From Acaryochloris marina S15 (lineage in GTDB: Bacteria > Cyanobacteriota > Cyanobacteriia > Thermosynechococcales > Thermosynechococcaceae): DNA of 32,000 bases. The notes below the pieces were generated by a model. The model ran no database searches, had not been told where the DNA came from, and saw only the letters and a program-made list of their open reading frames with translations. A program made the position numbers and the translations under genes. Below, piece by piece: positions 1-25,387 of this stretch (position 1 is the first letter of the stretch; every line of letters starts with the position of its first letter). The DNA lies in the NCBI RefSeq assembly GCF_018336915.1, contig NZ_CP064923.1, forward strand, positions 210,001 through 242,000, read 5' to 3'.

Positions 1-422
1 ATCGTCTGAAAATCATTGCTTTATGGACCGCATTTCTTTTAGGGATGCTTTTCCATACCCCATTGGCTTTAATGCCTTTGTTTCACGGTTTGAGTGTTGC
101 CCACTCTCATACCCATGATTATTTACCCCTCAACACCCTCTTTGGGTTGATGTTAGGACTGTTTGGTATTGCCATGGCTGCCATCGTCACTACGGCCTTG
201 GTGAATGGACAAAGATACAAAACGCTACATTTTGGCTTGACCTTGTTATACACCGCCATTAACGGCAGCCATCTGATCTTCGATGTCCTGGTAGGCGTTC
301 CCAGCTATCTGCTTTGCCGGATGGGCTATCTGCTGATTATGGGTCTCCTGCTTAACGTTGTGGCTTTTCAATGGTTTGACTCAGAGTCGAATAAACAACC
401 GGTCTTGAGGTCAGTCCATTGA
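1..422 (+). CDS. Hypothetical integral membrane protein; 5' end probably lies outside the window
   Basis: ORF 45..422. The same frame stays open back to nt 3 (..RLKIIALWTAFLLG before MLFH..). Hydrophobic helices are present (GLMLGLFGIAMAAIVTTALV, GYLLIMGLLLNVVAF). No family recognised. Confidence 0.45.
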   Translation, partial: RLKIIALWTAFLLGMLFHTPLALMPLFHGLSVAHSHTHDYLPLNTLFGLMLGLFGIAMAAIVTTALVNGQRYKTLHFGLTLLYTAINGSHLIFDVLVGVPSYLLCRMGYLLIMGLLLNVVAFQWFDSESNKQPVLRSVH

Positions 423-544
423 CTGTTAAGACCGGTTTTCCTGACCGTTCGATAGACGTCTCCCTGGTGCGATCGCAAAAATTTGCCCATAATTGGAGTG
501 GCGATTCCTTCAGAGATTCAATCGGACCCAACGTCAGGAGGCCG

Positions 545-2827
545 ATGATGAAAATACTTGTTGTTGAGGATGATCAGGCCACGTCTGAAACCTTAACTAC
601 ACTCCTCAACCAGTGCAGCTATGCGGTGGAAACTGCGACTGATGGTGAAACGGCTGCTGATCTGGTGGCTGCTTTTGAGTATGATTTACTCTTGCTCGAT
701 GTCATGTTGCCGAAGATAGATGGCATCACCCTCTGTCGGCAGCTGCGCAATCAAGGCCATACCATGCCGATTTTGCTGCTGACGGGGAAGGGTGATAGCC
801 ATGACAAGGCGGTCGGCCTAGATGCGGGTGCTGATGATTATGTGGTCAAACCCTTTGACCTGGAAGAATTAGAAGCTCGCATTCGGGCCTTACTGCGGCG
901 GGGGCATCTCTATACAACACCTATCTTGGAATGGGGCCAGATCCAGCTCGATCCCAGTTCCACCCAGGTGAGCTACCGTCAGCAACTCCTAGCCCTTACC
1001 CCCAAAGAATATGCTCTTTTAGAATTGCTCATGCGTAACCCTCGGCGGGTCTATAGCTGCGGTATGTTGCTAGAACATCTATGGACCTATGAGGATATGC
1101 CAGGGGAAGAGGCCGTTAGAACTCATATTAAAGGTCTCCGCCACAAGCTGCGTGACGCCGATGCTCCCGCCGATATGATCACAACCGTCTATGGGATTGG
1201 CTATCGCCTCAAACCTTTAGCAGAATTAGAGAAGGAGGCACCGTCGTTTCAGGAAGAAAATCAAGCAGCCATTGCTAATATTTGGCAGCGGTATCAAGCC
1301 CGTATTAGTCGTCAGGTGCAGGTTTTGGAACAAGCCAGTGCCGCCTTCCAAACCCACCAAGGCCAGCTGAACCCTGAACAGCAGCAGCGGGCCGAACAAG
1401 AGGCCCATACTTTGGCTGGTGCCCTGGGGATGTTTGGCATTCATGCCGGTACTGACCTTGCCCGTCAGATTGAGCAGCTACTGCGGCTGCCTCAACCCCT
1501 AGGGATGGAGCATATCAAGCAATTCCAGGCTCAGGTAGAGACCCTCAGACAGACGATTGAGGCCTATGGACCTTTCACCCCCACTGATGTGAGCGAGTCG
1601 CTGCCTCCCCTCCCCTCCTTACTGGTGATTGATGCGGATCGAGACTGGATTAAGGATTTAACGGGGCAAGCTAGCCATTGGGACTGGACGGTGCGAGCCG
1701 TGATGGATTTAGACGCTGCCCAAACAGCACTGACCCAGGATCTGCCCCAGGTGATTTTGCTCGATCCAGCAGTGGCTGACCATAAAAATCAAACGATTGC
1801 TTTCCTAGAAAAGGTTACACATTTTACGCCTCCGATTCCGGTGCTCTTTTATGGATCTCCGAATGGATTGCACTCCCGTTTAGAAGTGGCTCGCCTCGGT
1901 GGCAAAGCTTATTTAGAAAAGCCCATTGTTCCCAAGCAGGTGTTGCATGAAGTTGATCGGGTCCTGCACCAGTCCCAAGCCATTACCGCCAAAGTAATGA
2001 TTGTGGATGATGATCCGCATTTACTGCAATTTCTGCCGCCGTTACTGGAGCCTTGGGGGTTTAAAGTGAGTACTCTCGCTGATTCCAGGCTGTTTTGGCA
2101 AACCTTGGTCGCGGCTGCCCCTGATTTACTAATCCTCGATGTTGAAATGCCCGATGTCAGCGGCATGGAACTCTGCCAAATCGTTCGCAATGATCCGTAC
2201 TGGCAGAATCTGCCGATTATCTTTTTAACGGCCCATACGGAAGCTGAAATAGTGAATCAGATTTTCGTCCTGGGTGCGGATGATTTTGTCAGTAAACCCG
2301 TCGTCGGCCCCGAACTCGTCGTGCGCCTGGTCAATCGCCTCGAGCGGATGCAGCTATCGCAACAGTTATGGCAGGTGGATACCCTCACAAAAGCCTATAA
2401 GCGGCAACCCGCTATTCCTCGCCTAGAGCAGATGATGAAACGGGCCCAAGAGTCACAGCAACCCTTGAGTTTGGGTTTAGTGAAGGTGATGAATCTGCGG
2501 AACATTAATGCTGAGTTTGACTTGGAAACTGGAGACTCTGTTTTGCGTCAGGTGGGCTATGCCCTATGCCAAGGCTGTGGGCAAGAAGATGTGGTTGCTC
2601 GCTGGAGTAGCAATGAATTCTTGATGGGGCTCCAGGGGATCCGGAGCGATGATGCAGAGCATCATATTCAGCATCTATGTCAGGACTATCTCCAGACTCA
2701 CCAACAGACGGATGATGCTGTTCCGATTCAGCTTGACTTAGGGGTTGTACAATATCCCGAGGCTGGGAAAACCTTATCTGCGCTATACAAAGCAGCAGAT
2801 CAGCGCCGGCAACGTGAGGCAGACTGA
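545..2827 (+). CDS. Multidomain response regulator: REC, OmpR-type winged helix, HPt, receiver-like domain, REC, degenerate GGDEF
   Basis: ORF 419..2827 trimmed to ATG 545 or 548, just after AGGAGG at 536-541. REC1 is MMKILVVEDD..LLLDVMLPKIDG..VVKPF. The wHTH is LTPKEYALLELLMRNP..VYGIGYRLK. The HPt motif is AHTLAGALGMFG, with His at 1406-1408. The second receiver-like domain is LLVIDADRD..VILLD..LEKPI. The third REC is KVMIVDDD..LILDVEMPDVSG..VSKPV. The C-terminal GGDEF fold has SSNEF in place of GG(D/E)EF at 2606-2620. Confidence 0.85.
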   Translation: MMKILVVEDDQATSETLTTLLNQCSYAVETATDGETAADLVAAFEYDLLLLDVMLPKIDGITLCRQLRNQGHTMPILLLTGKGDSHDKAVGLDAGADDYVVKPFDLEELEARIRALLRRGHLYTTPILEWGQIQLDPSSTQVSYRQQLLALTPKEYALLELLMRNPRRVYSCGMLLEHLWTYEDMPGEEAVRTHIKGLRHKLRDADAPADMITTVYGIGYRLKPLAELEKEAPSFQEENQAAIANIWQRYQARISRQVQVLEQASAAFQTHQGQLNPEQQQRAEQEAHTLAGALGMFGIHAGTDLARQIEQLLRLPQPLGMEHIKQFQAQVETLRQTIEAYGPFTPTDVSESLPPLPSLLVIDADRDWIKDLTGQASHWDWTVRAVMDLDAAQTALTQDLPQVILLDPAVADHKNQTIAFLEKVTHFTPPIPVLFYGSPNGLHSRLEVARLGGKAYLEKPIVPKQVLHEVDRVLHQSQAITAKVMIVDDDPHLLQFLPPLLEPWGFKVSTLADSRLFWQTLVAAAPDLLILDVEMPDVSGMELCQIVRNDPYWQNLPIIFLTAHTEAEIVNQIFVLGADDFVSKPVVGPELVVRLVNRLERMQLSQQLWQVDTLTKAYKRQPAIPRLEQMMKRAQESQQPLSLGLVKVMNLRNINAEFDLETGDSVLRQVGYALCQGCGQEDVVARWSSNEFLMGLQGIRSDDAEHHIQHLCQDYLQTHQQTDDAVPIQLDLGVVQYPEAGKTLSALYKAADQRRQREAD

Positions 2828-5454
2828 TGATGATTGAGCAAGTCCACCTTCTTCCTGAACAACAGAGCTGGATGACTTCGCTGTTGAATACTTTGCCAGC
2901 GCTGGTGGTGATTTTGGATGCGAAAGGTCGGATTGTCGGCTTCAATCAGGCTTGTGAGCAGGTTTCTGGGTATACCTTTGCTGAGGTGAAAGAGCGATTT
3001 CTTTGGCAGGATTTGCTGTTGCCAGAGGAACGAGCAGGGGTACAAGCCGTTTTTGAACAATTGCTCTCCCATCAAGGCCCCAAACAATATCAAAATCACT
3101 GGCAGACGAAAACAGGAGAGCGCCATTTGATTGCCTGGTCCAATTCAGTGATTCAGCAGGGACAGGCGGTCCAATTTGTGATTGGGACAGGGATTGATAT
3201 TACCGAGCAGCAGCAGTCGGCGTTGGCCTTGCAGCAGCAAATTGAGCATGAGCAGCTTTTGAGTGGGATCGCAGCTCGGATTCGCCAATCTCTAGATCTC
3301 CACACTATCCTCAACACCACCGTTGATGAAGTCCGGCAAGTGTTAGAGACGGATCGCGTTTTGATCTTCCGCCTTGAACGAAATTGGGACGGTATTGTCT
3401 TGGTGGAATCCGTGGATACGGACCAATGGCCTTCCATTCTGGGGGTTAAAATTCACGATCCGTGTTTTCCCGATATCTATAGTGGGGCACCTGAGCAAAT
3501 CCGTGCCAGCGCTGTTGATAATATCTACACCGCTAACCTTTCACCCTGCCATCAAGAGCTACTGAAGGAATTTCAGATTCAAGCCAATTTAGTGGTCCCC
3601 ATTATTTTGGAGAATCGAGTCTGGGGACTGCTGATGGCCCATCATTGTCGTGAACCGCGCCATTGGAAATCTCTAGAGATTAAGTTGCTGAGTCGGCTGG
3701 CGATTCAACTTGCGATCGCAATTCAGCAATCGGAACTGTACTGCCAGCTGCAGGCGGAATTGACCGAACGCGAGCAAGTAGAAGTCGTTCTGCAAGAAGC
3801 CAAACATAATCTAGAACAGCGGGTTGCCGAACGAACAGCAGCCCTACGCCAGGCCAACCAACAATTACGGTCTGAACTGCTGACGCGCCAGCAGGCAGAA
3901 GCTGCCTTACAACATTCTCAAAAACGGATCTCCGGCATTTTGGAAATTGCCGATGACGCCATCATTTCCGTGGATGCCTCGCATATCATCACGCTGTTTA
4001 ATCAAGGGGCAGAGAAAATGTTTGGGTATCGCCGTCAAGATATCCTCGGCCAACCTTTGAATCTCCTATTGCCTGATGATTTGGTGAATTATGCTCAGAC
4101 TCCGACAGACGGCATTTCAACGACAACCTACCAGATGGGGGCACGACGACGTCCGATTACAGCGCAGCGCCGAGATGGCACCTACTTTACGGCAGAGGCC
4201 TCTATCTCTAAACTACAGCTGGGGGATGAACAGGTCTTTACCGCCATTCTGCGAGATATTACAGATCGCTTAGAAGCCCAAGCCTCCCTAACTAAGCTCA
4301 CCCGCCAAAACGAATTAATCCTCAATTCCATGGGTGAAGGACTTTGTGGGGTGGATCTGCAATATCACATCACCTTTGTTAATCCCGCTGCGGCTGACAT
4401 GCTAGGCTATGCGATCCCTGAGCTGATTGGTCAACCCGTAGAGACCATCTTGGGGACGAATCCTCAGCACCTTGATGGGGATCTAGATGCCCTGTATCCC
4501 TTTGAGGATTCGTTGATTTCTGGCACAATCCATCGGTTTATTACCGATGAATTTCAACGATGGGACGGCACGATGTTTCCAGTGGAATATGTGAGTACCC
4601 CCATTCGTGAAAACGACATCATTATGGGGGCAGTGATCACCTTCAAAGATGTGAGTGATCGTCAGGTGGTTGAACGCATGAAGGATGAATTTATTTCCGT
4701 GGTTAGCCATGAACTGCGTACTCCCCTCACCTCGATTCACGGGTCCCTGCGGATGCTCACCAGTGGACTATTAACCGCTCACCCGGACAAGAGTCAACGA
4801 CTCCTCCAAATTGCCGTGGATAGTACGGATCGCCTGGTGCGCCTGATCAATGACATTCTAGATGTAGAACGGATTGAGTCGGGTGAGGTCGGTATGACAA
4901 CATACCCGTATAATATTGCCGATTTAATGACCCAAGCTACCAATACCATGCAGGGCATGGCTGCTCAGATGAAAGTCGAATTGGCGGTGACGCCTTTAGC
5001 CGTATTGACAGATGTGGCTGGCGATCGGATTGTCCAAACCCTCACTAATCTCCTGAGCAACGCCATCAAATTTTCCCGTCCAGGGGGCACCGTTGCCATG
5101 AGTGCACACCTCATGCCCCAACAGCCCCCTAGCTGTTCTTTGACCTCAACCACCACTGAGCTATCTCTTTCCCCGGCAGATGCGCCTCAGGTTTGTATAT
5201 GGGTCCGGGATCAAGGCAGAGGGATTCCTCCAGATAAAATTGACACCATCTTTGAACGGTTTCAACAAGCTGATTCTTCAGATGCTCGTGATCATGAAGG
5301 TACGGGGTTAGGCCTAGCCATTTGCCAAAGTATTGTGCACCAACATGGCGGCCACATTTGGGTAGAAAGTCAACTGGGTAAAGGCAGTACCTTTTCCTTC
5401 ACATTACCCATTCAACGAGACGATATTGCAAACAAAGGTAGACCGGTTACATGA
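2827..5454 (+). CDS. Sensor histidine kinase, PAS-GAF-PAS-PAS-HisKA-HATPase; the GAF is cyanobacteriochrome-like
   Basis: ATG 2827 overlaps the upstream TGA (2825-2827). H-box is FISVVSHELRTPLTSIHG. ATPase boxes are LLSNAIKFS, DQGRGIP and GTGLGLAICQ. Two PAS domains lie after a coiled coil (QAELTEREQVE..). No C-terminal receiver. Confidence 0.9.
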   Translation: MMIEQVHLLPEQQSWMTSLLNTLPALVVILDAKGRIVGFNQACEQVSGYTFAEVKERFLWQDLLLPEERAGVQAVFEQLLSHQGPKQYQNHWQTKTGERHLIAWSNSVIQQGQAVQFVIGTGIDITEQQQSALALQQQIEHEQLLSGIAARIRQSLDLHTILNTTVDEVRQVLETDRVLIFRLERNWDGIVLVESVDTDQWPSILGVKIHDPCFPDIYSGAPEQIRASAVDNIYTANLSPCHQELLKEFQIQANLVVPIILENRVWGLLMAHHCREPRHWKSLEIKLLSRLAIQLAIAIQQSELYCQLQAELTEREQVEVVLQEAKHNLEQRVAERTAALRQANQQLRSELLTRQQAEAALQHSQKRISGILEIADDAIISVDASHIITLFNQGAEKMFGYRRQDILGQPLNLLLPDDLVNYAQTPTDGISTTTYQMGARRRPITAQRRDGTYFTAEASISKLQLGDEQVFTAILRDITDRLEAQASLTKLTRQNELILNSMGEGLCGVDLQYHITFVNPAAADMLGYAIPELIGQPVETILGTNPQHLDGDLDALYPFEDSLISGTIHRFITDEFQRWDGTMFPVEYVSTPIRENDIIMGAVITFKDVSDRQVVERMKDEFISVVSHELRTPLTSIHGSLRMLTSGLLTAHPDKSQRLLQIAVDSTDRLVRLINDILDVERIESGEVGMTTYPYNIADLMTQATNTMQGMAAQMKVELAVTPLAVLTDVAGDRIVQTLTNLLSNAIKFSRPGGTVAMSAHLMPQQPPSCSLTSTTTELSLSPADAPQVCIWVRDQGRGIPPDKIDTIFERFQQADSSDARDHEGTGLGLAICQSIVHQHGGHIWVESQLGKGSTFSFTLPIQRDDIANKGRPVT
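3274..3726 (+). other. GAF domain with DXCF-class cyanobacteriochrome signature (putative bilin-binding photosensor)
   Basis: Sequence is DRVLIFRLERNWDGIVLVESV..IHDPCFPDIY..VDNIYTANLSPCHQELLKEFQIQANLVVPI..VWGLLMAHHC. The DPCF Cys codon is at 3463-3465. The canonical CH Cys codon is at 3547-3549. Confidence 0.6.
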
Positions 5455-5831
5455 CAGCAAAGTGCATCCTCGTAGTGGATAACGAGCTATACATTCAAGA
5501 AGTGGTCCAGATTGCGTTAGAGACCATCAAAAATTGGCGCGTTGTCACCGCCAGTTCAGGTGCTGAAGGTCTGCTGAAGGCGGAGAAAGTCCGTCCCGAT
5601 GCCATTCTTCTGGATATGATGATGCCGGATATGGATGGGGCCACCACCTTTCAGAAACTCCAGGCCAATCCCCTGACTCAAGCCATTCCGGTGCTGTTAC
5701 TGACCGCTAAAATTCAAACAGCGGATCAAAAACGTTATCAGGAGATGGGGGTGCATTCCACCATCGCCAAACCCTTCGATCCTTTACAGCTTCCCGCTCA
5801 GATTGCAGATGTATTAGGCTGGCAGTTATAG
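5451..5831 (+). CDS. Single-domain CheY-like response regulator
   Basis: ATGA start/stop overlap with the kinase at 5451-5454. Motifs are ILVVDNE, ILLDMMMPDMDG, LLLTAK and IAKPF. Confidence 0.9.
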   Translation: MTAKCILVVDNELYIQEVVQIALETIKNWRVVTASSGAEGLLKAEKVRPDAILLDMMMPDMDGATTFQKLQANPLTQAIPVLLLTAKIQTADQKRYQEMGVHSTIAKPFDPLQLPAQIADVLGWQL

Positions 5832-5865: not shown

Positions 5866-6963
5866 ATGAAGCCATCTGAATCTTCTCTCACTTTTTCGAT
5901 TGCCAGTTTGCTGCGTTTGGGAGTCATCAGTTTAGGGCTGCTGTTATTGTGGCAACTCCAAAATCTAGTGGTGGTGTTGATGATTTCTATCGTCTTGGCA
6001 TCCACCCTTGCCCCCATTATTCAACAGGTAGAATCGTTGCGAGCCCCTCGGTGGCTGGCAGTTTTGGGGGTGTATGTCAGCCTGATTGGTGCGGCCATTA
6101 CGGCAACCTTGGTGATTGGTCCCACGATTACAGAGCAAATTCAGCGAATTTTCATTGCCCTACCCGGATACCTAGATACCCTCACTACGCTGATTGAGGA
6201 ATCGATCATGCAGATGGGCATTAGTAAGCCAGAAGATTTGGGCATGATCAATCAATTGTTCGATCTACAAGCCCTAACCGCCTGGACCTTTCGATCCAGT
6301 CAAAAGCTGATTCTTCAGTCTGTAGATATCACCAAAGGTTTATTGGGAGGCGTCTTTAATTTACTCTTGGCCTTGATTTTGTCAGCCTATATGTTGTCAG
6401 ATTCCCAACGATTACTGAATGGCCTCGTATCGCTTTTTCCTCAACCCTGGGAGCAGCGGCTGGCTGACCAAGTGCATCCGGTGAGTCAACGCATGGGGGC
6501 CTATATTCAAGGGAGATTGTTGGTCTCGCTGATCTTGGGGACAACGGTCAGCATTGGCTTGAAGCTGATTGGGATCGCCGAAGTGGCTTTGGGACTAGGT
6601 GCGATTGCAGGACTAACGAACCTGATTCCCTTTTTTGGACCGGTGCTGGGTGCTATTCCTGCCTTACTGGTGGCTGTTGCCCAGGGGGGGTGGACCGTGG
6701 TGTGGGTGTTTTTACTGTTTGTGTTGATCCAAAATCTGGAAACCTATGTTCTCGATCCGTTAGTGGTGAGTCCGTCGGTGAATGTGCCGCCACTTTACCA
6801 ACTGCTAGCAGTCTTGGGTGGCACCCAAGTCTTAGGGATTATTGGGGCGTTAATTGCTCCACCTTGGGTAGCTGCAGGGGGAGTCTTGATCGAGAATTTA
6901 TATCTGCACCCCAAACGTGAAGCAGAGCAAAATACTCAGCCTGCTGTGGAAACCGTCAGTTGA
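5866..6963 (+). CDS. AI-2E family (PerM/UPF0118) membrane transporter
   Basis: 365-aa polytopic protein. It has the typical GLTNLIPFFGPVLGAIPALLVAV motif and the family's size and organisation. Confidence 0.75.
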   Translation: MKPSESSLTFSIASLLRLGVISLGLLLLWQLQNLVVVLMISIVLASTLAPIIQQVESLRAPRWLAVLGVYVSLIGAAITATLVIGPTITEQIQRIFIALPGYLDTLTTLIEESIMQMGISKPEDLGMINQLFDLQALTAWTFRSSQKLILQSVDITKGLLGGVFNLLLALILSAYMLSDSQRLLNGLVSLFPQPWEQRLADQVHPVSQRMGAYIQGRLLVSLILGTTVSIGLKLIGIAEVALGLGAIAGLTNLIPFFGPVLGAIPALLVAVAQGGWTVVWVFLLFVLIQNLETYVLDPLVVSPSVNVPPLYQLLAVLGGTQVLGIIGALIAPPWVAAGGVLIENLYLHPKREAEQNTQPAVETVS

Positions 6964-8597: not shown

Positions 8598-9407
8598 TTA
8601 GCCCCGGCGACCACTAACATAGGCTGCGGTGAGCGGATCTTGAGGGTTGGCAAAAATATCTTTGGCTGGGCCAAATTCAACCAATTGACCCACATCATGT
8701 TGCACCCAGAAAAAGGCCACATCGTCGGCAATGCGGGAAGCTTGGCCCAGATTGTGAGTGACGATCAGAATAGTATAGGTGCCTTTTAACCGCAGAATTA
8801 AATCTTCAATCACTTCGCTGGAGAGGGGGTCGAGGGCGCTACAGGGCTCGTCCATTAGCAGCACTTGAGGTTTTAAGGCCAGTGCCCTCGCTAAGCAAAG
8901 ACGTTGCTGCTGCCCTCCAGATAGAGAAAGGGCGGGGGCTTTGAGCCGATCTTTAACTTCTGTCCACAGGCCCACATCCGTGAGGGTGGTTTCGATGATG
9001 TGGTGAATATGGTTGCGATCGCAAATCCCATGCTCTTTTAAGGGAAACGCTAAATTGCGGTAAATGGAGAGGGGAAAGGGATTAGGCTTTTGGAACAGCA
9101 TTCCTACCTGGCGGCGCAGGGGGGTTAGGGGCATCGTCGCCGTATCGCACTCATTAAGATAAACTCGACCCGATAATTGGGCTGTTGGGGTCAATTCATG
9201 GAGACGATTTAAACAGCTCAAAAAGCTGGTTTTACCACAGCCGGATGGACCGATTAAGGCCGTAATCTGTCCTGCTCGGAACTGAGCCTCCACATTAGCA
9301 AAGGCCACCTTGCGACCATAGCGCAAACTCAGTTGCTCCACTCGGATGCTGGGAGGCTGGTGATGATCCGTGGTTAAGGATTGGGGGCTCAAGGTGGGAG
9401 AGGTCAT
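8598..9407 (-). CDS. pstB: Phosphate ABC transporter ATP-binding protein PstB
   Basis: Walker A is GPSGCGKTS, signature is LSGGQQQRL, Walker B is LLMDEP. The PstB-typical LFQKPNPFP is present. 4-nt overlap with pstA. Confidence 0.9.
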   Translation of the reverse strand: MTSPTLSPQSLTTDHHQPPSIRVEQLSLRYGRKVAFANVEAQFRAGQITALIGPSGCGKTSFLSCLNRLHELTPTAQLSGRVYLNECDTATMPLTPLRRQVGMLFQKPNPFPLSIYRNLAFPLKEHGICDRNHIHHIIETTLTDVGLWTEVKDRLKAPALSLSGGQQQRLCLARALALKPQVLLMDEPCSALDPLSSEVIEDLILRLKGTYTILIVTHNLGQASRIADDVAFFWVQHDVGQLVEFGPAKDIFANPQDPLTAAYVSGRRG

Positions 9408-10288
9408 AGAATTTGAAGCTTGGATTGGCGAAAACGTTCGGCTAACCCGGAGACAAGAGTATTGATCAAAATGAGAAGAATCACGAGGACCAGGGCCGTT
9501 CCATAAGCATTCTGTTCACCCCCAGGAATATTCATGGCGAGATCGAAAATATGAATCGATAGTACCCGCCCAGAATCTAATACTGATGTGGGCATCCGGT
9601 CAACATAGCCACTGGTGAAAATTAAGGCTGCCGTTTCGGCGATGGCCCGCCCAATCCCCAGCAAAATCCCCACGGCAATCCCTGGCAACGCTGCCGGTAA
9701 AATCAACGTTTTCAGGGTGCCGAAGCGAGACAACCCCAATGCTGCCGATGCTTGGCGATATTCACCGGGCACATTGACGAGTCCTACCTGAATAGAGCGA
9801 ATGAGGATGGGCAGCACCATACAGGCTAGGGTTAATCCCCCTGACAGGATAGAGAACCCTAATCCTAAAACCTTGGAGAAAAAGGCATTGCCAAACAGGC
9901 CAAACACAATGGACGGCACGCCTGCCAAAATATCTAAACTTAGCCGAATGGCGCGATGGGATTGCTGGGGACTGAATTCGGTCAGGAACAAGGCCGTGCC
10001 TAATCCCAAGGGTAGGGATACTCCCATACAAACCCCTAACACCCACCCCGTGGACACCAAAATGGGAGCAATGCCGCCTTCTCGTCCGGCTTTAGCAGGC
10101 ACTTGGGTTAAAAAAGCACCATTGATAGCTTGTCCCCCTTGCCAAATCACGTCACTGAGCAGCCAGATAAACAAAGCGGTAATGCCCAAGGCCACGAGCC
10201 ATACCATCAGGGTTGCGACTTGCTCCTTGCCAACAGGGCGGAGATGACGATTAGACCAAGGACAAACCATTTTAAACCTCCGGGGCAT
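9404..10288 (-). CDS. pstA: Phosphate ABC transporter permease PstA
   Basis: Polytopic permease with an EAA-like loop (GRAIAETAALIFTSG). It occupies the position after pstC in a pstSCAB array. Confidence 0.85.
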   Translation of the reverse strand: MPRRFKMVCPWSNRHLRPVGKEQVATLMVWLVALGITALFIWLLSDVIWQGGQAINGAFLTQVPAKAGREGGIAPILVSTGWVLGVCMGVSLPLGLGTALFLTEFSPQQSHRAIRLSLDILAGVPSIVFGLFGNAFFSKVLGLGFSILSGGLTLACMVLPILIRSIQVGLVNVPGEYRQASAALGLSRFGTLKTLILPAALPGIAVGILLGIGRAIAETAALIFTSGYVDRMPTSVLDSGRVLSIHIFDLAMNIPGGEQNAYGTALVLVILLILINTLVSGLAERFRQSKLQIL

Positions 10289-11168
10289 CCGTCCACCGAT
10301 CGGTGAACATCACCAGTCCGGTCACCACCAGCATCAGGACTAGACCACTGGCAAATAAGGCTGACCGATGGAGGTCTAAAGCGTAGGCCATTTCTAGGGC
10401 AATATTGGCAGTCAGGGTGCGGACGGGGGCAAAGATGGAATTGGGCACCTGCACGACATTGCCACAGACCATCAGTACAGCCATAGTTTCCCCTAGGGCA
10501 CGAGCAGTGGCGAGCATGATAGCCGTCAAAATACCGGAACGAATCGCTGGTAAACAGACCCCTTGCACCGTTGCCCAAGTGCCCAGTCCCAAGGCAGCTG
10601 ATCCTTGCCAGTAGGTCGGAGGGATACTCGCCAAGCTGGCATCAGTGACCAGGGCAATGGTGGGCAAAATCATCAGGGCCAAAATCAGAATTCCGGCGAG
10701 GAGGCTAGGGCCAGGAGGCTGAACTTTGGCAATCAAAGGCACAAGGACGACCAATCCCCACAAGCCATAGACTACAGAAGGAATGCCAGCCAGCAGCTCG
10801 ATCAAGCGTCGATAAATTTGTGCTAATCCCTTCGGAGCGTAGTATTGGCAAAACACAGCCGATAAGATGCCTAGAGGCGTGGCTATAGATACCGCTCCAA
10901 CGGTGACTCCCAGAGTGCCCAGAATCATGGGGGTGAGATTGTAGGACTGTTCGCTAGGATGCCAGCCTGGATCACGCCAAAATTGATCGAGGGAAATGGT
11001 GCGTAGAATTGGCAGGGTTTCCCAAATGAGAAAGCCCAGAATCAACAGTAAGATAGCCCCTGACCCCAAGGCCAGGAGTTGCAAGAGGACGGCCCCTGGT
11101 CCTTCACTCTTGAACCGGAACAAGGGACTGCTCTTGGACAATATCCTTGACCTGGGACGATTGGGCAA
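10272..11168 (-). CDS. pstC: Phosphate ABC transporter permease PstC
   Basis: Permease with ARALGETMAVLMVCGN. Start is uncertain. Codon 11168 is TTG, with further in-frame TTGs at 11141 and 11123. All of them overlap the pstS 3' end. Confidence 0.8.
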   Translation of the reverse strand: MPNRPRSRILSKSSPLFRFKSEGPGAVLLQLLALGSGAILLLILGFLIWETLPILRTISLDQFWRDPGWHPSEQSYNLTPMILGTLGVTVGAVSIATPLGILSAVFCQYYAPKGLAQIYRRLIELLAGIPSVVYGLWGLVVLVPLIAKVQPPGPSLLAGILILALMILPTIALVTDASLASIPPTYWQGSAALGLGTWATVQGVCLPAIRSGILTAIMLATARALGETMAVLMVCGNVVQVPNSIFAPVRTLTANIALEMAYALDLHRSALFASGLVLMLVVTGLVMFTDRWTDAPEV

Positions 11169-11940
11169 AGTCGATAAATTTTTGCTGTTGAGGATTGAGA
11201 GACCCTTGGGTTACCAAGTTAAGGGGACGTGATAAGGGAAAAGACCCATCCCGAACGGTTTGGGCCGTCGCCTGAATCCCTTCTAAGGGCAGAACTTTAA
11301 TGGGGGTGCCCTGTTCGACATTGACTTTCGCTGCGCCAACAGAGACGTAGCCAATGGCGAGGGGATTGCCTGCTACGGTTTTAATGCCCTGCTCGTTATC
11401 GCCAATCACTACATCGGCTTTGATTTGTGAGGATTTGAGCTGGAAGTGCTGGGTAAAGACTTCTAGGGTGGAGCGACCTTCAGCTTTATTGACGACGGTA
11501 ATCGCCTGGGATTTCCCCCCAGCGTCCTGCCAGTTGTTGAGCTGGTCTGTGTAGATATCGGTAATTTGCTGGCGGGTGAGCCGCTGAATCGGGTTATCCC
11601 GATGGACAATCACCACGACGCCATCTTTAGCGATGGTGTGGAAGTTTAGGCCCTGGTCTTCTGACTTGGCAGCTCGGGACACCATGCCAATATCAGCCAC
11701 CTGTTGGCGCACATCAGCAATCCCCCGCGAAGACCCACCTGTTTGCACATCAATCCGCACCTGGGGATTTTGGGCTTCATAGCGTTTGGCAATTTCGGAA
11801 GCAATGGGGGCAACGGTACTGGATCCCGTAATCACTAGTTTTTGCGGGGCGTTACCGGAGCTGGACGCTTGTAATGTACTACAGGCTTGCAATCCCAGAG
11901 ATAAACCCAAAAAAACGCCTGCAATGACTCGACCAGACAT
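11104..11940 (-). CDS. pstS: Phosphate-binding protein PstS (PBP-like-2 / PhoT type), probable lipoprotein
   Basis: Motifs are ITGSSTVAPI and IGYVSVG. ORF-track start is 11964, but ATG 11940 has AGGA about 8 nt upstream. It yields the signal MSGRVIAGVFLGLSLGLQAC, with a possible lipobox. Confidence 0.8.
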   Translation of the reverse strand: MSGRVIAGVFLGLSLGLQACSTLQASSSGNAPQKLVITGSSTVAPIASEIAKRYEAQNPQVRIDVQTGGSSRGIADVRQQVADIGMVSRAAKSEDQGLNFHTIAKDGVVVIVHRDNPIQRLTRQQITDIYTDQLNNWQDAGGKSQAITVVNKAEGRSTLEVFTQHFQLKSSQIKADVVIGDNEQGIKTVAGNPLAIGYVSVGAAKVNVEQGTPIKVLPLEGIQATAQTVRDGSFPLSRPLNLVTQGSLNPQQQKFIDFAQSSQVKDIVQEQSLVPVQE

Positions 11941-12020
11941 AATTGTTCCTGCTAATGACTCCATAAAAATTCGGTGACCCCTGGGTTCAAGGGCCGCTTA
12001 AAAGTTTGAATTGGTCGTGG

Positions 12021-14858: not shown

Positions 14859-16739
14859 ATGATGTCTGCACAAGATTTAATCCATACCCTAGAACAAACA
14901 ACCCAGAAACGACTCAAGCAAATCTCTGTTGAAGACTTGAGTAAAAGTCTGGATGACATCTATAACCATTTGCAGATTCAGCCCAATGCTTATGCCCTGA
15001 ATGATGAAAATCAAATCGTTGGACTGAGTTTGCAAGGGGTGGATGGCCATGAATTATTGGCAGCATCAATCGAGCAATTTCACCATCTCTCCGCCTTGTA
15101 TTTATTCGATATTGTCTCGCCAGAAATCATCCCATTTGCCAGTCTTCAAAGACTCTCAGCCATTGCGCTGTCGGGACAAGATGTGAAGACTGCCTCCTAT
15201 CTCCAACAAGCAGAGAATCTCAAAACGGTTTATTTGAATGCCACCCATATTTCTGATTACTCCTGCTTGTCGGACCTCAAGAACCTGACCCACCTCGACT
15301 TAAGCAACAATCTGATTGCTGATATTTCCTTTATCCAGGACCTCAAGCAACTCACCTACCTGGGATTAGGGTCTAACAAAATTGTTGATATTTCAGCACT
15401 CAAACACCTGACGAAACTGGTCAGCCTAAATTTACGCTCTAATGCAACAGCGGATTATTCAGTGTTGCGAGATCTCCAAGACCTCACCCATCTAGCAATT
15501 AGCGTTAGCGAGGAAATGGGGATTTCCTTCCTACAAAATCTTAAAGGCCTCACCCATCTGGATCTCAGCTACAACCACTGGATTTCGGATATTTCTGTGT
15601 TACGAGATCTGCAAGGACTCGCCCACCTGGATTTAGGGTCTAACCAGATTTCTGATATTGCAGTTTTGCAAGATCTACAGCAACTCACCTATCTGTCTTT
15701 AAGTTGCAATCAGCTTGCAGATATTTCAGTATTACCAACCCTCCAAGGACTTGAAAGTCTGGATGTCAGTGCTAACGAGATTGCTGATATTGCAATTCTG
15801 CAAAACCTCACAGGGTTGACCCATCTGGATATCAGCTCCAATGAAGTGTCTGATATTTCAGCTTTGCAGGATCTCACGACGCTCACTCATCTGAACATCA
15901 GTTCAAACGAGATGATTGATTATGCAGTGTTACAAGGTCTGACAGAACTTACTAGCCTAGATATCAGTGACAATCAGATGGCTGAGATCTCAGACTTACA
16001 GGGACTCCAAGCACTGACCAGTCTGAACTTAAGCTATAACCAGCTGTCTGATATTTCAGTCCTAAAGGATTTCAAGCAACTGGCTAATCTGAATTTAAGC
16101 TACAACCCCCTATCAGATATTGCGGCTCTGCAAAACTGCATGAACCTCACCACCCTAAATTTAAGTTTCACCCAAATTACCGACCTTTCCACCCTGCCAG
16201 ATCTGAAGAGTCTAACCAGTTTAGATTTACATAGCAATCAGATTACGGATATCTCAGCGTTGCAAGACCTTGAGGGCCTATATAGGCTGAATGTCAGTGA
16301 CAATAAGCTGTCTGACATTTCAGCTATCAAGAGACTCACGGGACTCTTCAGCCTGAATTTAAGTATTAACCAGCTTTCTGATATTTCAGTTCTGCACGAT
16401 CTAACAAGACTGACCAGTTTGAATGTCAGTCATAATCAGCTGTCTGATATTTCAGTTTTGCAGGGACTTACAAGACTGTTCAGTCTAGATTTAGGGGCCA
16501 ATCAGGTTGCTGATATCTCAGCCCTGCAAAATATTCCAGGTCTCTTTAGTCTAGATTTGCGATTTTCTGATGTGTCCGTGTTTCAGGACTTCAAAGGACT
16601 CACCAGCCTAAATTTAAGTTCTAATCAGATTTCAAGCGTTCCTGAATGGTTGAGTGAGCAAGGCCTTCCTATTCAAACAGAGGATGAAGAGGCCTTATTC
16701 TGCATTAACTTATGTGATAATCCCATCCCACCTGTGTAG
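14859..16739 (+). CDS. Leucine-rich repeat protein (about 21 tandem 22-residue LRRs); no signal peptide and no other domain
   Basis: Repeats follow the form LxxLTxLxLSxNQIsDISxLQx, for example LQGLAHLDLGSNQISDIAVLQD and LTRLTSLNVSHNQLSDISVLQG. Confidence 0.9.
   Translation: MMSAQDLIHTLEQTTQKRLKQISVEDLSKSLDDIYNHLQIQPNAYALNDENQIVGLSLQGVDGHELLAASIEQFHHLSALYLFDIVSPEIIPFASLQRLSAIALSGQDVKTASYLQQAENLKTVYLNATHISDYSCLSDLKNLTHLDLSNNLIADISFIQDLKQLTYLGLGSNKIVDISALKHLTKLVSLNLRSNATADYSVLRDLQDLTHLAISVSEEMGISFLQNLKGLTHLDLSYNHWISDISVLRDLQGLAHLDLGSNQISDIAVLQDLQQLTYLSLSCNQLADISVLPTLQGLESLDVSANEIADIAILQNLTGLTHLDISSNEVSDISALQDLTTLTHLNISSNEMIDYAVLQGLTELTSLDISDNQMAEISDLQGLQALTSLNLSYNQLSDISVLKDFKQLANLNLSYNPLSDIAALQNCMNLTTLNLSFTQITDLSTLPDLKSLTSLDLHSNQITDISALQDLEGLYRLNVSDNKLSDISAIKRLTGLFSLNLSINQLSDISVLHDLTRLTSLNVSHNQLSDISVLQGLTRLFSLDLGANQVADISALQNIPGLFSLDLRFSDVSVFQDFKGLTSLNLSSNQISSVPEWLSEQGLPIQTEDEEALFCINLCDNPIPPV
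15276..16650 (+). repeat. Intragenic tandem 66-bp periodicity encoding the LRR units
   Basis: DNA strings such as ctcacccatctggat and tctgatatttcagt recur at 66-nt intervals, in frame with the LRR CDS. Confidence 0.8.
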
Positions 16740-16831: not shown

Positions 16832-19800
16832 TCATTCGGAACACTGCCGTTGCGAGGGCAGCAGATTAGCAGTGGTTGTGAGATAGCTGGAGAGGTGACG
16901 ACACCCCTTCTCTAATAAAACGTCCAGATCGATATTTGCCTTCTGGAGTGTCGCTCCTGTGCCCACCCATATTTGCTTATCCTTTACATTGACCCGCGTC
17001 ACAGGACCCAACCTATCCAGCGTCTTGAGCAACGTTCCCTGATCTACCTGCCAAACCTTAACCGACTGATCCGGACTGCCTGAGATTAAAATTGGCTGAT
17101 TGGGAAGAAATGCTAGACTCATCACCCCATTTTGATGGCCCGTCAAGGTTTGTACTAACGTCTTGTCTTGCCATAGCTTGATCGTATTGTCCCAACTAGC
17201 AGACGCTAAAATATCACCTGCAGAATTGAACTGGACTTGAGCGATCGCCAAGCCATGGCCCGTCAACGTTTTGACTGGAGTGCCGTCCAGCTGCCACAGC
17301 TTCACCGTCTCGTCATCACTACCCGACGCTAGATAGCGAGGTCCAAAATCAACACTCGTCACGGGGCCATCGTGGGCCTGAATCGTTTTGACGGTTTTTC
17401 CCGTTGCCGCATCCCATAGGCGAATGGTTTGGTCATCACTGCCCGATACTAGGGTTTTGCCATTCGGACTGAAATCGAGACTATTGATTTTGCCCCTATG
17501 GCCGGAGAGAGTGCGTTGCACCGTCCCCTCATGGATATCCCACACCCTAATCGCTTTGTCATGTCCTGATACCAGCTGTTGGCTATCGGCACTAAACCGG
17601 AGGGCATAAACGGGCTTTAGATCGCCGTTGAAGCTTTTGAACGGTAGCTTACCCACTTGTGGATCGGACCGCCAGAGCTGAATCTTGCCGTCTAGACTGG
17701 CTATCGCTAAGGTCTGTTGGTCTGGACTAACGGCCATTGCCAGGATGATTGATACAGCCTCAAAAATAGAGGGTGTGGCCCAAACTCGGACCTGTTTATC
17801 AACACTGGCAGAGACTAAAGTTTTGCCATTGGGATGAAAGGCAGCATCTAGGGTTGCAGCACCATGCCCTTGCAGCACTGACAAGGGCTTACCTGTTTCC
17901 ACTTGCCAAAGTCGGAGACTGTGATCGGCATGGGTCGAGACTAAGGTGTTGCCATCCGGGCTAAAGGCCACGCTAGTTACAACAACATTCTCTGTTTGAA
18001 ACGTACGCAGTCGCTTGCCTGTTAGGGTCCATAACTGAATTGTGCCGTCTTCTGTAGAAGAGGCGATGGTCTGACCATCTGAACTAATGGCGATATCGGT
18101 GACTGCAGTGGTCTGTTGAGGCAATGTGCGGAGCGTTTGCCCCTGCGCCACATCCCAAATCCGTACAGTTTTATCTTCACTGGCAGACACGAGGATATTG
18201 CCAGTGGGATTAAAGGCAACGGCATTGACCCAACCCTGATGCCCAGACAAGGTTTTCACTGGCTTGCCTGTACTGGCCTCCCAGAGCTTAATCACGGATT
18301 CTCGGCCTGCGGTCGCCAGCTGGTTGCCTTGGGGATGGAAGGCTAAGCCTGTTCCATGAGACGCGGCAGTAAAGCTGGCAAGCTGTTTCCCTGTTTTGGG
18401 AGACCAGCGTTGCACCGTTCCCTGAGTAGTGATCACTGCAATGGATTGATCGTCAGGACTAAAAGCAACATCATTGACTTTCTCGCCAATTTCCAGAGTA
18501 TGGAGTCGCTTGCCATTCGCCTGCCAAATCCTCACAGTTTGATCATCACTGCCCGATGCAATCCACTGCCCCGATGAGCTAATGCTAACGGAAGTGACTC
18601 GTTGGGTATGGCCTTCCAGGCGATTTCTTTCTTGGGTTTTTGCGATCGCATCTCCTAACGTCAGGGCGGTTTGGGTGCGTATCGCTCCTAAGGTATTGCC
18701 ATCAATACCCCAACCCCAAAGGCCTTGGAACTGTCTTGCAGCTTGGGTACTGGTGAGAAGCGCTTCGAGTTGCTGATGCGATCGCAACTGGGATTCCGAC
18801 AAGGCATTTAAGGCCCGAATCTCACTCAGCTGGGTTTGCTGACGCTGAAGAAAAGCCATGCCCGCCAGTCCCGTCGCTGCTGCTCCCAGCAAGCTAATAA
18901 CGCCCACTGCAACCTGCGCCTGTCTCAGCTGCTGTTTGGCCTGTTTCTGTTCCTGCTCTTGGGCCGATAAACCTGCTTGAACAAAGGCTTGTACTTCCGC
19001 CGATAGCTCGTCTGTGTACTTCACATACAGCTCTGCTGCCGCATCCAGTCGCACTCCTCGCAACAGGAAATCTGGTGACTGCTGACTCTGCTGCCAATTT
19101 TCAGCAGCTTGCTCAATTTGACGCTGCGTTTGTAGCCGAACCCGGTTTTCTTCTAGCCACCAGCGCAAGGTGGACCAATGGCGAATCAAAATTTCATGGA
19201 CCACTTCCACAGTCACATCCTGCTTGATCCATTCCAGCCAATCCTCGGGTTCAGAGGGTTCGGATGCATCATTGCCTTTACTGCTTAAGGTCTGGGCTGG
19301 AGAAAGATCCTGCTCCAAACTAACAATCACTAATTTGGCATCCGTCAGCGTCTTGAGCGTTCGCTCTACTAATTCAGCCGGATATTTAGGCACGACTAAA
19401 TCAGACTTCTTGATTCGGCGGCGGGTATCTTCCGTTCCATCTCCCAATTGAGTCAAAGCCAGGAAAATCCACTGGGCACAGGCTTGACCCTCCGCATCAA
19501 AACCATCGTAAATGTCTTGGGCTTTCCGTTCTAAAGCGCCTTTTAGGCCACCGATTTGCTGTTGATAAATGGCCAGGGTCAAGGCACCAGGCTGCCGCTG
19601 TTCCCAAAGCTGTTCTAGGACAAACTCCAGCAGCGGTAAATCACCCGCTAGATTGCTGAGTTCTTCCAGCAATACCGCTACGAGTTCCGGGTCCACCGCT
19701 AGTCCCACCTGCTCCGCTGGATTCAGAATGACGTGGCGATAACTGCCCGTCGTCAGGGCAGGAGGCACCAGAATATTCGACTCAGGCAACCGCTGAGCTA

Positions 19801-24493: not shown

Positions 24494-24595
24494 GGATTAA
24501 ACCTCTGGGTCCAGAACAAATGTCTGATGACAGCAACGGATTCCAACTCCTGAAGTATAATCTTGCCCAAATGGTAGTTGAGAGTATCAATCGTT

Positions 24596-25387
24596 ATGGG
24601 TGTTGGGATTATTCTGGTGTGTGCACTCTTCATCCTTGTGATCTGGTTGGCATTTCAACCCAAGCAGGGAGAAACCGCAGCAAACTCGCCAGACCAGCCC
24701 GACCCACCCTATATCCCCCCTCCACCAAAGACCGGAAATTTCTCCGATGATTTCTCTCAGTTGCCCCCAGGCCCACCGAATTTAGATCATCTCTCTGATT
24801 CGCCAGAAGACAAGCCCCACCCAGACGATGAATTCTCACCTCTTATCGTTGATTCCTCTGTATTAGATCTCAACGTGATAAGCGACGGCATAGATGATTC
24901 CTCTGGGCAAGGCCCCATCGTCATTAGCGATGATCTCCGCCAGCAGGTCCAACAACTTGTGGCAGAAGGACGTGAGATTACTGCGGTTAAACAGTTGCGG
25001 CAACAGGGCATGGAGCTGGACGAAGCTCGACGATATCTTGACGCTTTGCCCACCCCTCCTCCCATCGATGTAGTAGACGACTCATCCAAACAGCAGAATT
25101 ACGCGCAGGTTGAAGCTGAAGTCCGGCGATTCCTGGCCAAAGACCAAAAAATCAACGCTATCAACTATGTTCTTGAACAATGGGGATATGGCCTCAAAGC
25201 GGCAAAAGCCTATATTGAATCACTAGAAGAAACAAGCAACCCATCACCCAGTCGAGCTGAGCTAGACGCTGAGGTTCGTCTGCTGTTGTCTCAAGACCGC
25301 AAAATCTCGGCAGTTAAATTGGTGCGGTTGCACTTAGGCTATGACCTGAAAGACGCTAAACAGTATGTGGAATCTCTCGAAGACTAA
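24596..25387 (+). CDS. Membrane-anchored protein with a Pro/Asp-rich linker and three L7/L12-C-terminal-like repeats
   Basis: The TM is MGVGIILVCALFILVIWLAF. The repeats are EITAVKQLRQQGMELDEARRYLDAL, KINAINYVLEQWGYGLKAAKAYIESLEE and KISAVKLVRLHLGYDLKDAKQYVESLED. Compare ribosomal L7/L12 [25 protein letters not shown]. ORF-track start 24578 is TTG. Confidence 0.7.
   Translation: MGVGIILVCALFILVIWLAFQPKQGETAANSPDQPDPPYIPPPPKTGNFSDDFSQLPPGPPNLDHLSDSPEDKPHPDDEFSPLIVDSSVLDLNVISDGIDDSSGQGPIVISDDLRQQVQQLVAEGREITAVKQLRQQGMELDEARRYLDALPTPPPIDVVDDSSKQQNYAQVEAEVRRFLAKDQKINAINYVLEQWGYGLKAAKAYIESLEETSNPSPSRAELDAEVRLLLSQDRKISAVKLVRLHLGYDLKDAKQYVESLED

Follow-up and report, generated by a model that had tools for sequence, protein, structure and literature searches.

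A histidine kinase of Acaryochloris marina S15 whose single GAF domain is probably a dual-cysteine, DXCF-type cyanobacteriochrome

A stretch of 32,000 nucleotides from the cyanobacterium Acaryochloris marina S15 (contig NZ_CP064923.1, positions 210,001 to 242,000 of the forward strand), hereafter the window, was analyzed, and all positions below are counted from its first letter. It contains a gene for a sensor histidine kinase of 875 amino acids (2827..5454, + strand, as are all other features of this locus). The protein is probably regulated by light, its single GAF domain having the sequence features of a dual-cysteine (DXCF-type) cyanobacteriochrome (CBCR), and it would thus very probably belong to a familiar kind of sensor for blue-region light and would not represent a novel type of system. 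The gene was delimited from the list of open reading frames, Pfam and an exact-sequence look-up, which returned a 100% match to A. marina QUY42915.1 / WP_212664061.1, whose database name is simply "PAS domain S-box protein". NCBIfam supplied no name at equivalog level: its kinase models all scored far under their cut-offs, and the sole model to pass was the generic PAS 'sensory_box' domain. In the Pfam scan the domain order was PAS-GAF-PAS-PAS-HisKA-HATPase_c; these four domain types were the only ones matched and no PHY domain was found.

The GAF domain, presumed to be the bilin-binding photosensory module, spans residues 157-299 (3295..3723; Pfam GAF, 1.8e-24). It lies inside the region 3274-3726 (residues 150-300) that a previous reading made from the letters without database searches (the sequence-only reading) had assigned to a blue/green DXCF-class photoreceptor kinase, and the strings quoted in that reading (DRVLIFR, W.G..L.ESV, FQIQANLVVPI and VWGLLMAHHC) are all present in the translation. 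When the GAF sequence was compared with all PDB sequences by phmmer, the best match was the dual-sensor kinase PPHK (6OAP, E=1.6e-43), and further matches were miRFP670nano, derived from NpR3784 (3e-36), NpR6012g4 (3e-31) and TePixJ (3e-29). Overall, CBCRs matched with E-values of 1e-43 to 1e-23, as against about 1e-9 or weaker for phytochromes. An AlphaFold (AF2) model built on a 29-sequence alignment, which replaced a single-sequence model with a predicted local distance difference test score (pLDDT) of 36, reached a pLDDT of 92.3 and a predicted TM score of 0.87. When this model was compared with the PDB by Foldseek, the 50 top matches listed were all bilin-binding GAF domains of CBCRs or phytochromes, headed by 6OAP (TM 0.82); on TePixJ (4GLQ) the root-mean-square deviation was 1.6 Å and the TM score normalised to the target was 0.88. 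The predicted fold agrees with TePixJ, PPHK and miRFP670nano. Pfam, PDB sequence matches and predicted structure concur in indicating that the domain belongs to the CBCR-type bilin-binding family. A Cph1-like phytochrome was also considered and was ruled out, because the PHY domain is absent and the CBCR matches are far stronger.

Both cysteines expected for the class were read at codon level, at the places where they had been proposed. The DXCF motif, Asp211-Pro212-Cys213-Phe214 (3457..3468), is encoded by GAT-CCG-TGT-TTT, with the TGT of Cys213 at 3463-3465 in the context H-D-P-C-F. The canonical Cys241, the predicted anchor of the bilin through A-ring C3^1, is followed by His242 (3547..3552; TGC at 3547-3549, then CAT), 28 residues after Cys213. 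The register was set by alignment with TePixJ, whose full GAF sequence was obtained through a chimeric query. A core of 51 residues aligned with zero gaps (IEDPCFREHWVEAYRQGRIQATTDIFKAGLTECH... aligned with IHDPCFPDIYSGAPEQIRASAVDNIYTANLSPCH...), the complete cores being IEDPCFREHWVEAYRQGRIQATTDIFKAGLTECHLNQLRPLKVRANLVVPM in TePixJ and IHDPCFPDIYSGAPEQIRASAVDNIYTANLSPCHQELLKEFQIQANLVVPI in the A. marina S15 kinase. Accordingly, the Asp and Phe of the motif, D211 and F214, match TePixJ D492 and F495, the second cysteine C213 matches C494, the 'GR' arginine R226 matches R507, the canonical cysteine C241 and the adjacent H242 match C522 and H523, and the D-ring residues L246 and N254 match L527 and N535. 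This gap-free core, together with the spacing found across the family (see below), sets the cysteine pair above chance.

Leu246, Phe249 and Asn254 are placed by the alignment on the helix that follows the canonical cysteine (3562..3588). Phe249 (+8) is at what we take to be the 'helix Phe' position, a role reportedly described by Rockwell et al. 2014, and the β2 position is Val both in the S15 GAF and in TePixJ; a colour prediction from these Phe positions (Phe249, Val at β2) was judged not decisive. Leu246 and Asn254, at +5 and +13 of the canonical cysteine, form a D-ring pair shared with TePixJ (L527/N535) and with AM1_6305g1, where L132/N140 holds the D-ring (Fushimi and Narikawa, bioRxiv 10.1101/2020.12.27.424465). 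A third cysteine, Cys274 (3646-3648), is found in 'AHHC', at the position of the Cys in TePixJ 'AHQC'. Relatives in the 29-sequence alignment almost always have this cysteine (at least 90%), and the TePixJ variants crystallised as 4FOF, 2M7U and 6P58 carry Ala in its place.

A word-indexed protein search yielded only 10 matches and the family context needed an exhaustive search of representatives. With HMMER, 15,750 relatives were retrieved from 1.84 billion representatives, and 2,484 of these were at E≤1e-30. From the best 150 proteins and those fetched before, 532 full-length GAF domains were cut. A cysteine was present at the DXCF position in 264 of these domains, at the canonical position in 406 and at both in 239, and the spacing was 28 in 212 of the 239. 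Dual-cysteine domains with a spacing of 28 are the commonest class among these related GAFs. The closest GAFs outside Acaryochloris, with 54-62% identity, mostly carry D-P-C-F plus C-H or C-Y and are interleaved with single-cysteine GAFs carrying D-R-Y-F. At the motif level, the membership of the S15 domain in the DXCF class is solid. In a bootstrapped neighbour-joining tree of 527 GAFs, the S15 domain and its ortholog from A. marina MBIC11017 fell within an 11-member clade in which all members have both cysteines; PPHK and miRFP670nano joined at a 38-member clade, and TePixJ only near the root of the sample. The canonical cysteine is kept in 25 of 27 tree neighbours. Bootstrap support was 100% for the ortholog pair and only 5-12% for the small clades made up of dual-cysteine domains (5% for the 11-member clade) and, because of this, no specific DXCF sub-lineage is claimed.

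In five of the closest relatives outside Acaryochloris, the most similar DXCF GAF is part of a tandem array of 2-4 GAFs, where it often comes directly after a D-R-Y-F single-cysteine GAF (NpR3784/PPHK-like) in the same protein. The Acaryochloris kinase has kept a single GAF, in contrast to these arrays of other cyanobacteria.

Orthologs of the kinase were identified in A. marina MBIC11017 (NC_009925.1; 88% identity over the best segment) and in three Acaryochloris metagenome-assembled genomes (74-77%), whole-protein identities being 72-87%. Cys213, Cys241, Asp211, Phe214 and His242 are invariant in the four orthologs. The MBIC11017 protein (WP_049783743.1, NC_009925.1 about 3,514,490-3,517,105) has both cysteines and a GAF that is 94% identical to that of S15, with a ratio of nonsynonymous to synonymous substitution rates (dN/dS) of 0.04 at a dS of 0.89. 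Across the orthologs for which dS could be estimated, dN/dS of the GAF was 0.04-0.13. The GAF and the helical linker that follows it are the most conserved part of the kinase, the linker being the most conserved segment of all (97% identity and dN/dS 0.01 versus MBIC11017). These values suggest that both cysteines are kept under strong purifying selection. The DXCF subset of MBIC11017 was reportedly the object of a biochemical survey by Hasegawa et al. 2018, and the ortholog is probably within the scope of that survey, because its GAF is 94% identical with both cysteines. Full-text and supplement searches, outside which Hasegawa et al. 2018 and Fushimi et al. 2020 lay, found no locus tag or published spectrum for the ortholog. 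In MBIC11017, 12 photoreceptors of the phytochrome superfamily have been counted (PMC7332365).

The remainder of the protein is that of a complete sensor kinase. The GAF is preceded by an N-terminal PAS domain (residues 20-129, 2884..3213; Pfam PAS_4, PAS_3). As judged from the model and from ortholog comparison, a helical linker (residues 300-366, 3724..3924) connects the GAF to the PAS-PAS-kinase portion; in the model, the last GAF helix continues without a break up to residue 318, where the modelled fragment ends. The two further PAS domains (residues 367-478 and 497-609, 3925..4653; Pfam PAS_9, PAS, PAS_8) are followed by the kinase core (4678..5415; Pfam and motif positions), composed of HisKA (618-686, 3e-19) and HATPase_c (733-863, 5e-29). 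The phospho-acceptor His628 (codon 4708-4710) lies within HELRTPL, and the N (NLLSNAIKF), G1 (DQGRGI), F (FERF) and G2 (GTGLGL) boxes are all intact, which bears out the description of the protein as a kinase.

The analysis shows the identity of the domains, the register of the residues, the fold as predicted, the degree of conservation and the layout of the operon. On this basis we infer the following sequence of events, in which chromophore attachment, ligation at C10, the absorption colours, the sense in which the kinase is regulated and the signalling partners are all proposals. Cys241, in the Cys-His pair, would attach phycocyanobilin (PCB) autocatalytically at the A-ring. In the dark-adapted 15Z state, Cys213 would add to the C10 methine bridge, halving the conjugation and giving a form that absorbs blue or violet light. 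Illumination would drive 15Z-to-15E isomerisation about C15=C16 and release the second thioether, producing a teal-to-orange photoproduct whose exact colour would depend on isomerisation of the bilin to phycoviolobilin (PVB). The signal would then travel along the conserved helical linker and by way of both PAS domains into the core formed by the dimerisation and histidine phosphotransfer (DHp) and ATPase domains, where autophosphorylation of His628 would be altered. The mechanism follows the behaviour of DXCF CBCRs described in PMC6628166 and bioRxiv 10.1101/2020.12.27.424465. A supply of PCB is plausible, because A. marina strains retain chromosomal pcyA, the gene for PCB synthesis, which is considered a source of chromophore for CBCRs (PMC9324425). 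Judging from the sequence, we are confident, short of certainty, that the S15 GAF binds a bilin, and the evidence leans towards its having a blue-absorbing adduct state.

A number of observations weigh against this reading. In the tree, a grouping supported by 78% of the bootstrap replicates joins the S15 GAF to the single-cysteine PPHK and excludes TePixJ and NpR6012g4; the wider neighbourhood mixes dual-cysteine with single-cysteine (PPHK/NpR3784-like) GAFs, and on this placement the S15 domain appears clearly to lie outside the TePixJ/PixJ lineage. Such a position fits the published spread of DXCF-bearing GAFs over several lineages (bioRxiv 10.1101/2020.12.27.424465). It also bears on the colour: of the assignment as a blue/green DXCF-class CBCR made in the sequence-only reading, the class stands, its defining sequence features having been found, while 'blue/green' is dropped, the colour not being predictable. 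DXCF-motif domains also give blue/teal, blue/orange and green/teal photocycles (same preprint). A further point of the same kind is the stretch directly after the motif, Pro215-Ser228 (PDIYSGAPEQIRAS; 3469..3510), which in the family alignment is remodelled relative to the usual form x-x-x-Y-x-x-x-Y-x-x-G-R. The family consensus across residues 215-228 is KDSYIAPYQQGRIK; relatives read (K/E)-D-x-Y-x-x-P-Y-Q-Q-G-R-(I/V) and Acaryochloris reads P-D-I-Y-S-G-A-P-E-Q-I-R. Thus the Y-x-x-G-R pattern is missing, with Pro222 in place of Tyr and Ile225 in place of Gly (A-P-E-Q-I-R), and Arg226 aligns with the 'GR' arginine. Even this arginine varies: three orthologs carry His and one Gln, and the Acaryochloridaceae SU_2_1 fragment carries Gly. 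The same block is the least confident part of the GAF model, with a pLDDT of 76. The divergence (IYSGAPEQIRASAV), to which the sequence-only reading had already drawn attention, is therefore real, and it is specific to the Acaryochloridaceae orthologs, a Thermosynechococcaceae relative retaining Y-R-A-G-R.

The divergence of Y-x-x-G-R does not disqualify the GAF, because the Arg226 position varies among the 532 domains (R in 243, E in 105, Q in 55) and because AM1_6305g1, with Gln at this position, binds and isomerises its bilin (bioRxiv 10.1101/2020.12.27.424465). Y-x-x-G-R is frequent in CBCR GAFs and is not a defining feature of them. The remodelled stretch does, however, leave doubt about how stable the second linkage is and, with it, about the colours. 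There is a slight chance, as far as the sequence tells, that the rewritten helix gives the domain an atypical behaviour within the dual-cysteine class. Besides the loss of Tyr and Gly, the residue at the position of the propionate-binding Arg varies freely there, while its surroundings are strongly constrained. The C10 adduct might then be exceptionally labile or exceptionally stable, so that the receptor would act as an intensity or a redox/thiol sensor in place of a two-colour switch, or the preference for a bilin might be altered in the chlorophyll-d-containing Acaryochloris.

Three other explanations were weighed. The domain could bind a bilin without forming a stable C10 adduct and switch between two visible-absorbing states, for instance green/teal, with no blue dark state. 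AM1_6305g1 does so: it keeps the DXCF cysteine, isomerises PCB to PVB and is green/teal with no C10 ligation (bioRxiv 10.1101/2020.12.27.424465), which also counts against the adduct proposed here, and it shares with the S15 GAF the Leu/Asn D-ring pair and has Gln at the 'GR' arginine, a position that is not conserved among the orthologs of the S15 kinase. The grouping with PPHK/NpR3784-like single-cysteine GAFs and not with TePixJ points the same way. Against it, Cys213 is invariant in the orthologs while the residues just after it vary freely, and the D-P-C-F tetrad and His242 are the same as in TePixJ, which does ligate; we regard this explanation as unlikely. A still less probable one is that the GAF has lost efficient chromophore binding and plays a structural, dimerising or thiol/redox-sensitive role, the real input coming from the PAS domains. 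Throughout this ortholog group, the segment that in other GAFs places a conserved Tyr and Gly-Arg above the bilin has been rewritten and is variable, and three PAS domains are at hand as alternative inputs. One of the seven A. marina DXCF domains in the survey by Hasegawa et al. 2018 is also said to have bound no chromophore in E. coli, a further point against the reading preferred here. Set against this are the conservation of Asp211, Cys213, Phe214, Cys241, His242, Leu246 and Asn254 with respect to TePixJ, the high conservation of the GAF, which few other parts of the protein equal (94% identity, dN/dS 0.04 versus MBIC11017), the persistence of the canonical cysteine in nearly all tree neighbours and the binding of bilin by AM1_6305g1 in spite of its lacking the arginine. 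Finally, AM1_1870g4, a domain from the same genus, is reported to convert in one direction under blue light and to revert rapidly in a thermal reaction, its bilin undergoing no Z/E isomerisation (Hasegawa et al. 2018), and the dual-cysteine S15 domain could be a blue-light 'power sensor' of this sort. The behaviour of AM1_1870g4 is said to depend on a swapped G-D-C-F motif, whereas the S15 motif is the standard D-P-C-F, with Asp two residues before Cys, and this explanation is highly improbable. A DXCF-type CBCR with both linkages thus remains the preferred reading of the S15 GAF.

The kinase gene is the middle one of three. Upstream, with a stop codon that overlaps the kinase start, lies the gene for a multi-domain response regulator of 802 amino acids (419..2827; Pfam, motifs, junction), composed of REC, OmpR-type winged helix, Hpt, REC, REC and a degenerate GGDEF domain. 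Downstream, a gene for a CheY-like single-domain response regulator of 126 amino acids (5451..5831; open reading frame, Pfam Response_reg 2e-22) starts within the kinase stop codon (ATGA), and its product keeps the residues for phospho-acceptance (D10, Asp55, Thr85 and Lys107). Both the downstream CheY-like gene and the regulator with a DNA-binding domain on which the sequence-only reading had built a light-input pathway are thus present, and the order regulator-kinase-CheY is kept in all four Acaryochloris loci examined. The gene arrangement suggests that the three genes may be co-transcribed and linked by phosphotransfer. In the proposed mechanism, phosphate from His628 would pass to the presumably co-transcribed CheY-like protein, to the receivers of the upstream REC-wHTH-Hpt-REC-REC-GGDEF* protein, or to both; transfer to the DNA-binding regulator would be deduced from gene order only, and to present it as a pathway goes beyond the evidence.

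The 802-amino-acid regulator is an unusual fusion, in which the Hpt histidine is His330 (in AHTLAG). Its GGDEF signature has degenerated to SSNEF (residues 730-734) and, because of this, the protein is probably not an active diguanylate cyclase. Translation from a TTG start codon gives it an N-terminal extension of 43 residues ahead of the first REC, and the protein sequence of this extension is conserved in the MBIC11017 ortholog. The CheY-like gene is followed immediately by one for an AI-2E family transporter of 365 amino acids (5866-6963, +). Three of the four Acaryochloris loci have the transporter gene in this place, and the fourth gave no match.

The S15 kinase was compared with the closest known systems. 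The GAF of TePixJ from Thermosynechococcus (PDB 3VV4, 4GLQ, 4FOF, 2M7U and 6P58) is the structural prototype of the blue/green DXCF CBCRs. It shares with the S15 domain D-P-C-F, Cys-His, the spacing of 28 residues, the gap-free core, the Arg, Leu and Asn pocket positions and the extra cysteine of the 'AH(H/Q)C' strand. By contrast, overall identity is 36%, the two are distant in the tree, TePixJ has Leu at the position of Phe249, and after the DXCF motif it reads W-V-E-A-Y-R-Q-G-R where S15 reads Y-S-G-A-P-E-Q-I-R; moreover, TePixJ is a chemotaxis-type receptor (methyl-accepting chemotaxis protein, MCP) and the S15 protein a histidine kinase. The closest solved relative, with 47% identity, is PPHK of Leptolyngbya sp. 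JSC-1 (PDB 6OAP, 6OAQ and 6OB8), which is likewise a histidine kinase with a CBCR GAF. Unlike the S15 domain, PPHK lacks the second cysteine, its motif being D-Q-Y-F; it is a PCB-binding protein whose Pg state absorbs green light (562 nm), and its GAF is preceded by a receiver domain instead of a PAS. The NpR3784 group, parent of miRFP670nano (PDB 6MGH), has 45% identity and falls in the same broad cluster of the tree, but it consists of single-cysteine red/green CBCRs with D-R-Y-F. The DXCF CBCRs of MBIC11017, such as AM1_6305g1 and AM1_1870g4, are of the same genus and motif class as the S15 GAF. At the level of the locus, the Cph1-Rcp1 pair offers a parallel, in that a bilin-sensor kinase (predicted in S15) is followed by a single-domain CheY-like regulator. 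However, the S15 kinase has neither a PHY domain nor a knotted PAS-GAF-PHY core, being built on a lone CBCR GAF among PAS domains, and its locus includes the second, multi-domain regulator upstream.

Elsewhere in the window, four consecutive open reading frames at 8598-11964 (-) resemble a phosphate ABC transporter operon (PstB-, PstA-, PstC- and PstS-like, assigned by eye from the translations). The product of a gene at 16832-21958 (-), 1708 amino acids long, has an nSTAND1 NTPase domain (1.2e-118) and, after it, numerous WD40 repeats; the gene adjoins one for a leucine-rich-repeat protein of 626 amino acids (14859-16739, +). An open reading frame of 269 amino acids with a TTG start (24578-25387, +) weakly matches, at its C-terminal end, the C-terminal domain of ribosomal L7/L12 (9e-11, over 35 residues only).

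The identification of the GAF as a DXCF-type CBCR, if confirmed, would correct the generic annotation of the protein. DXCF cyanobacteriochromes are a large and well-studied class, of which the S15 kinase is one more case, and the current understanding of cyanobacteriochromes is unchanged by it. The small complement of photoreceptors in Acaryochloris would likewise grow by one kinase that senses blue-region light, and the conserved three-gene unit would be a tractable case of signal splitting by a CBCR kinase between a CheY-like protein and a regulator with DNA-binding, Hpt and dead GGDEF domains. The variable helix after the DXCF motif provides a natural series of variants in which the control of second-linkage stability may be studied.

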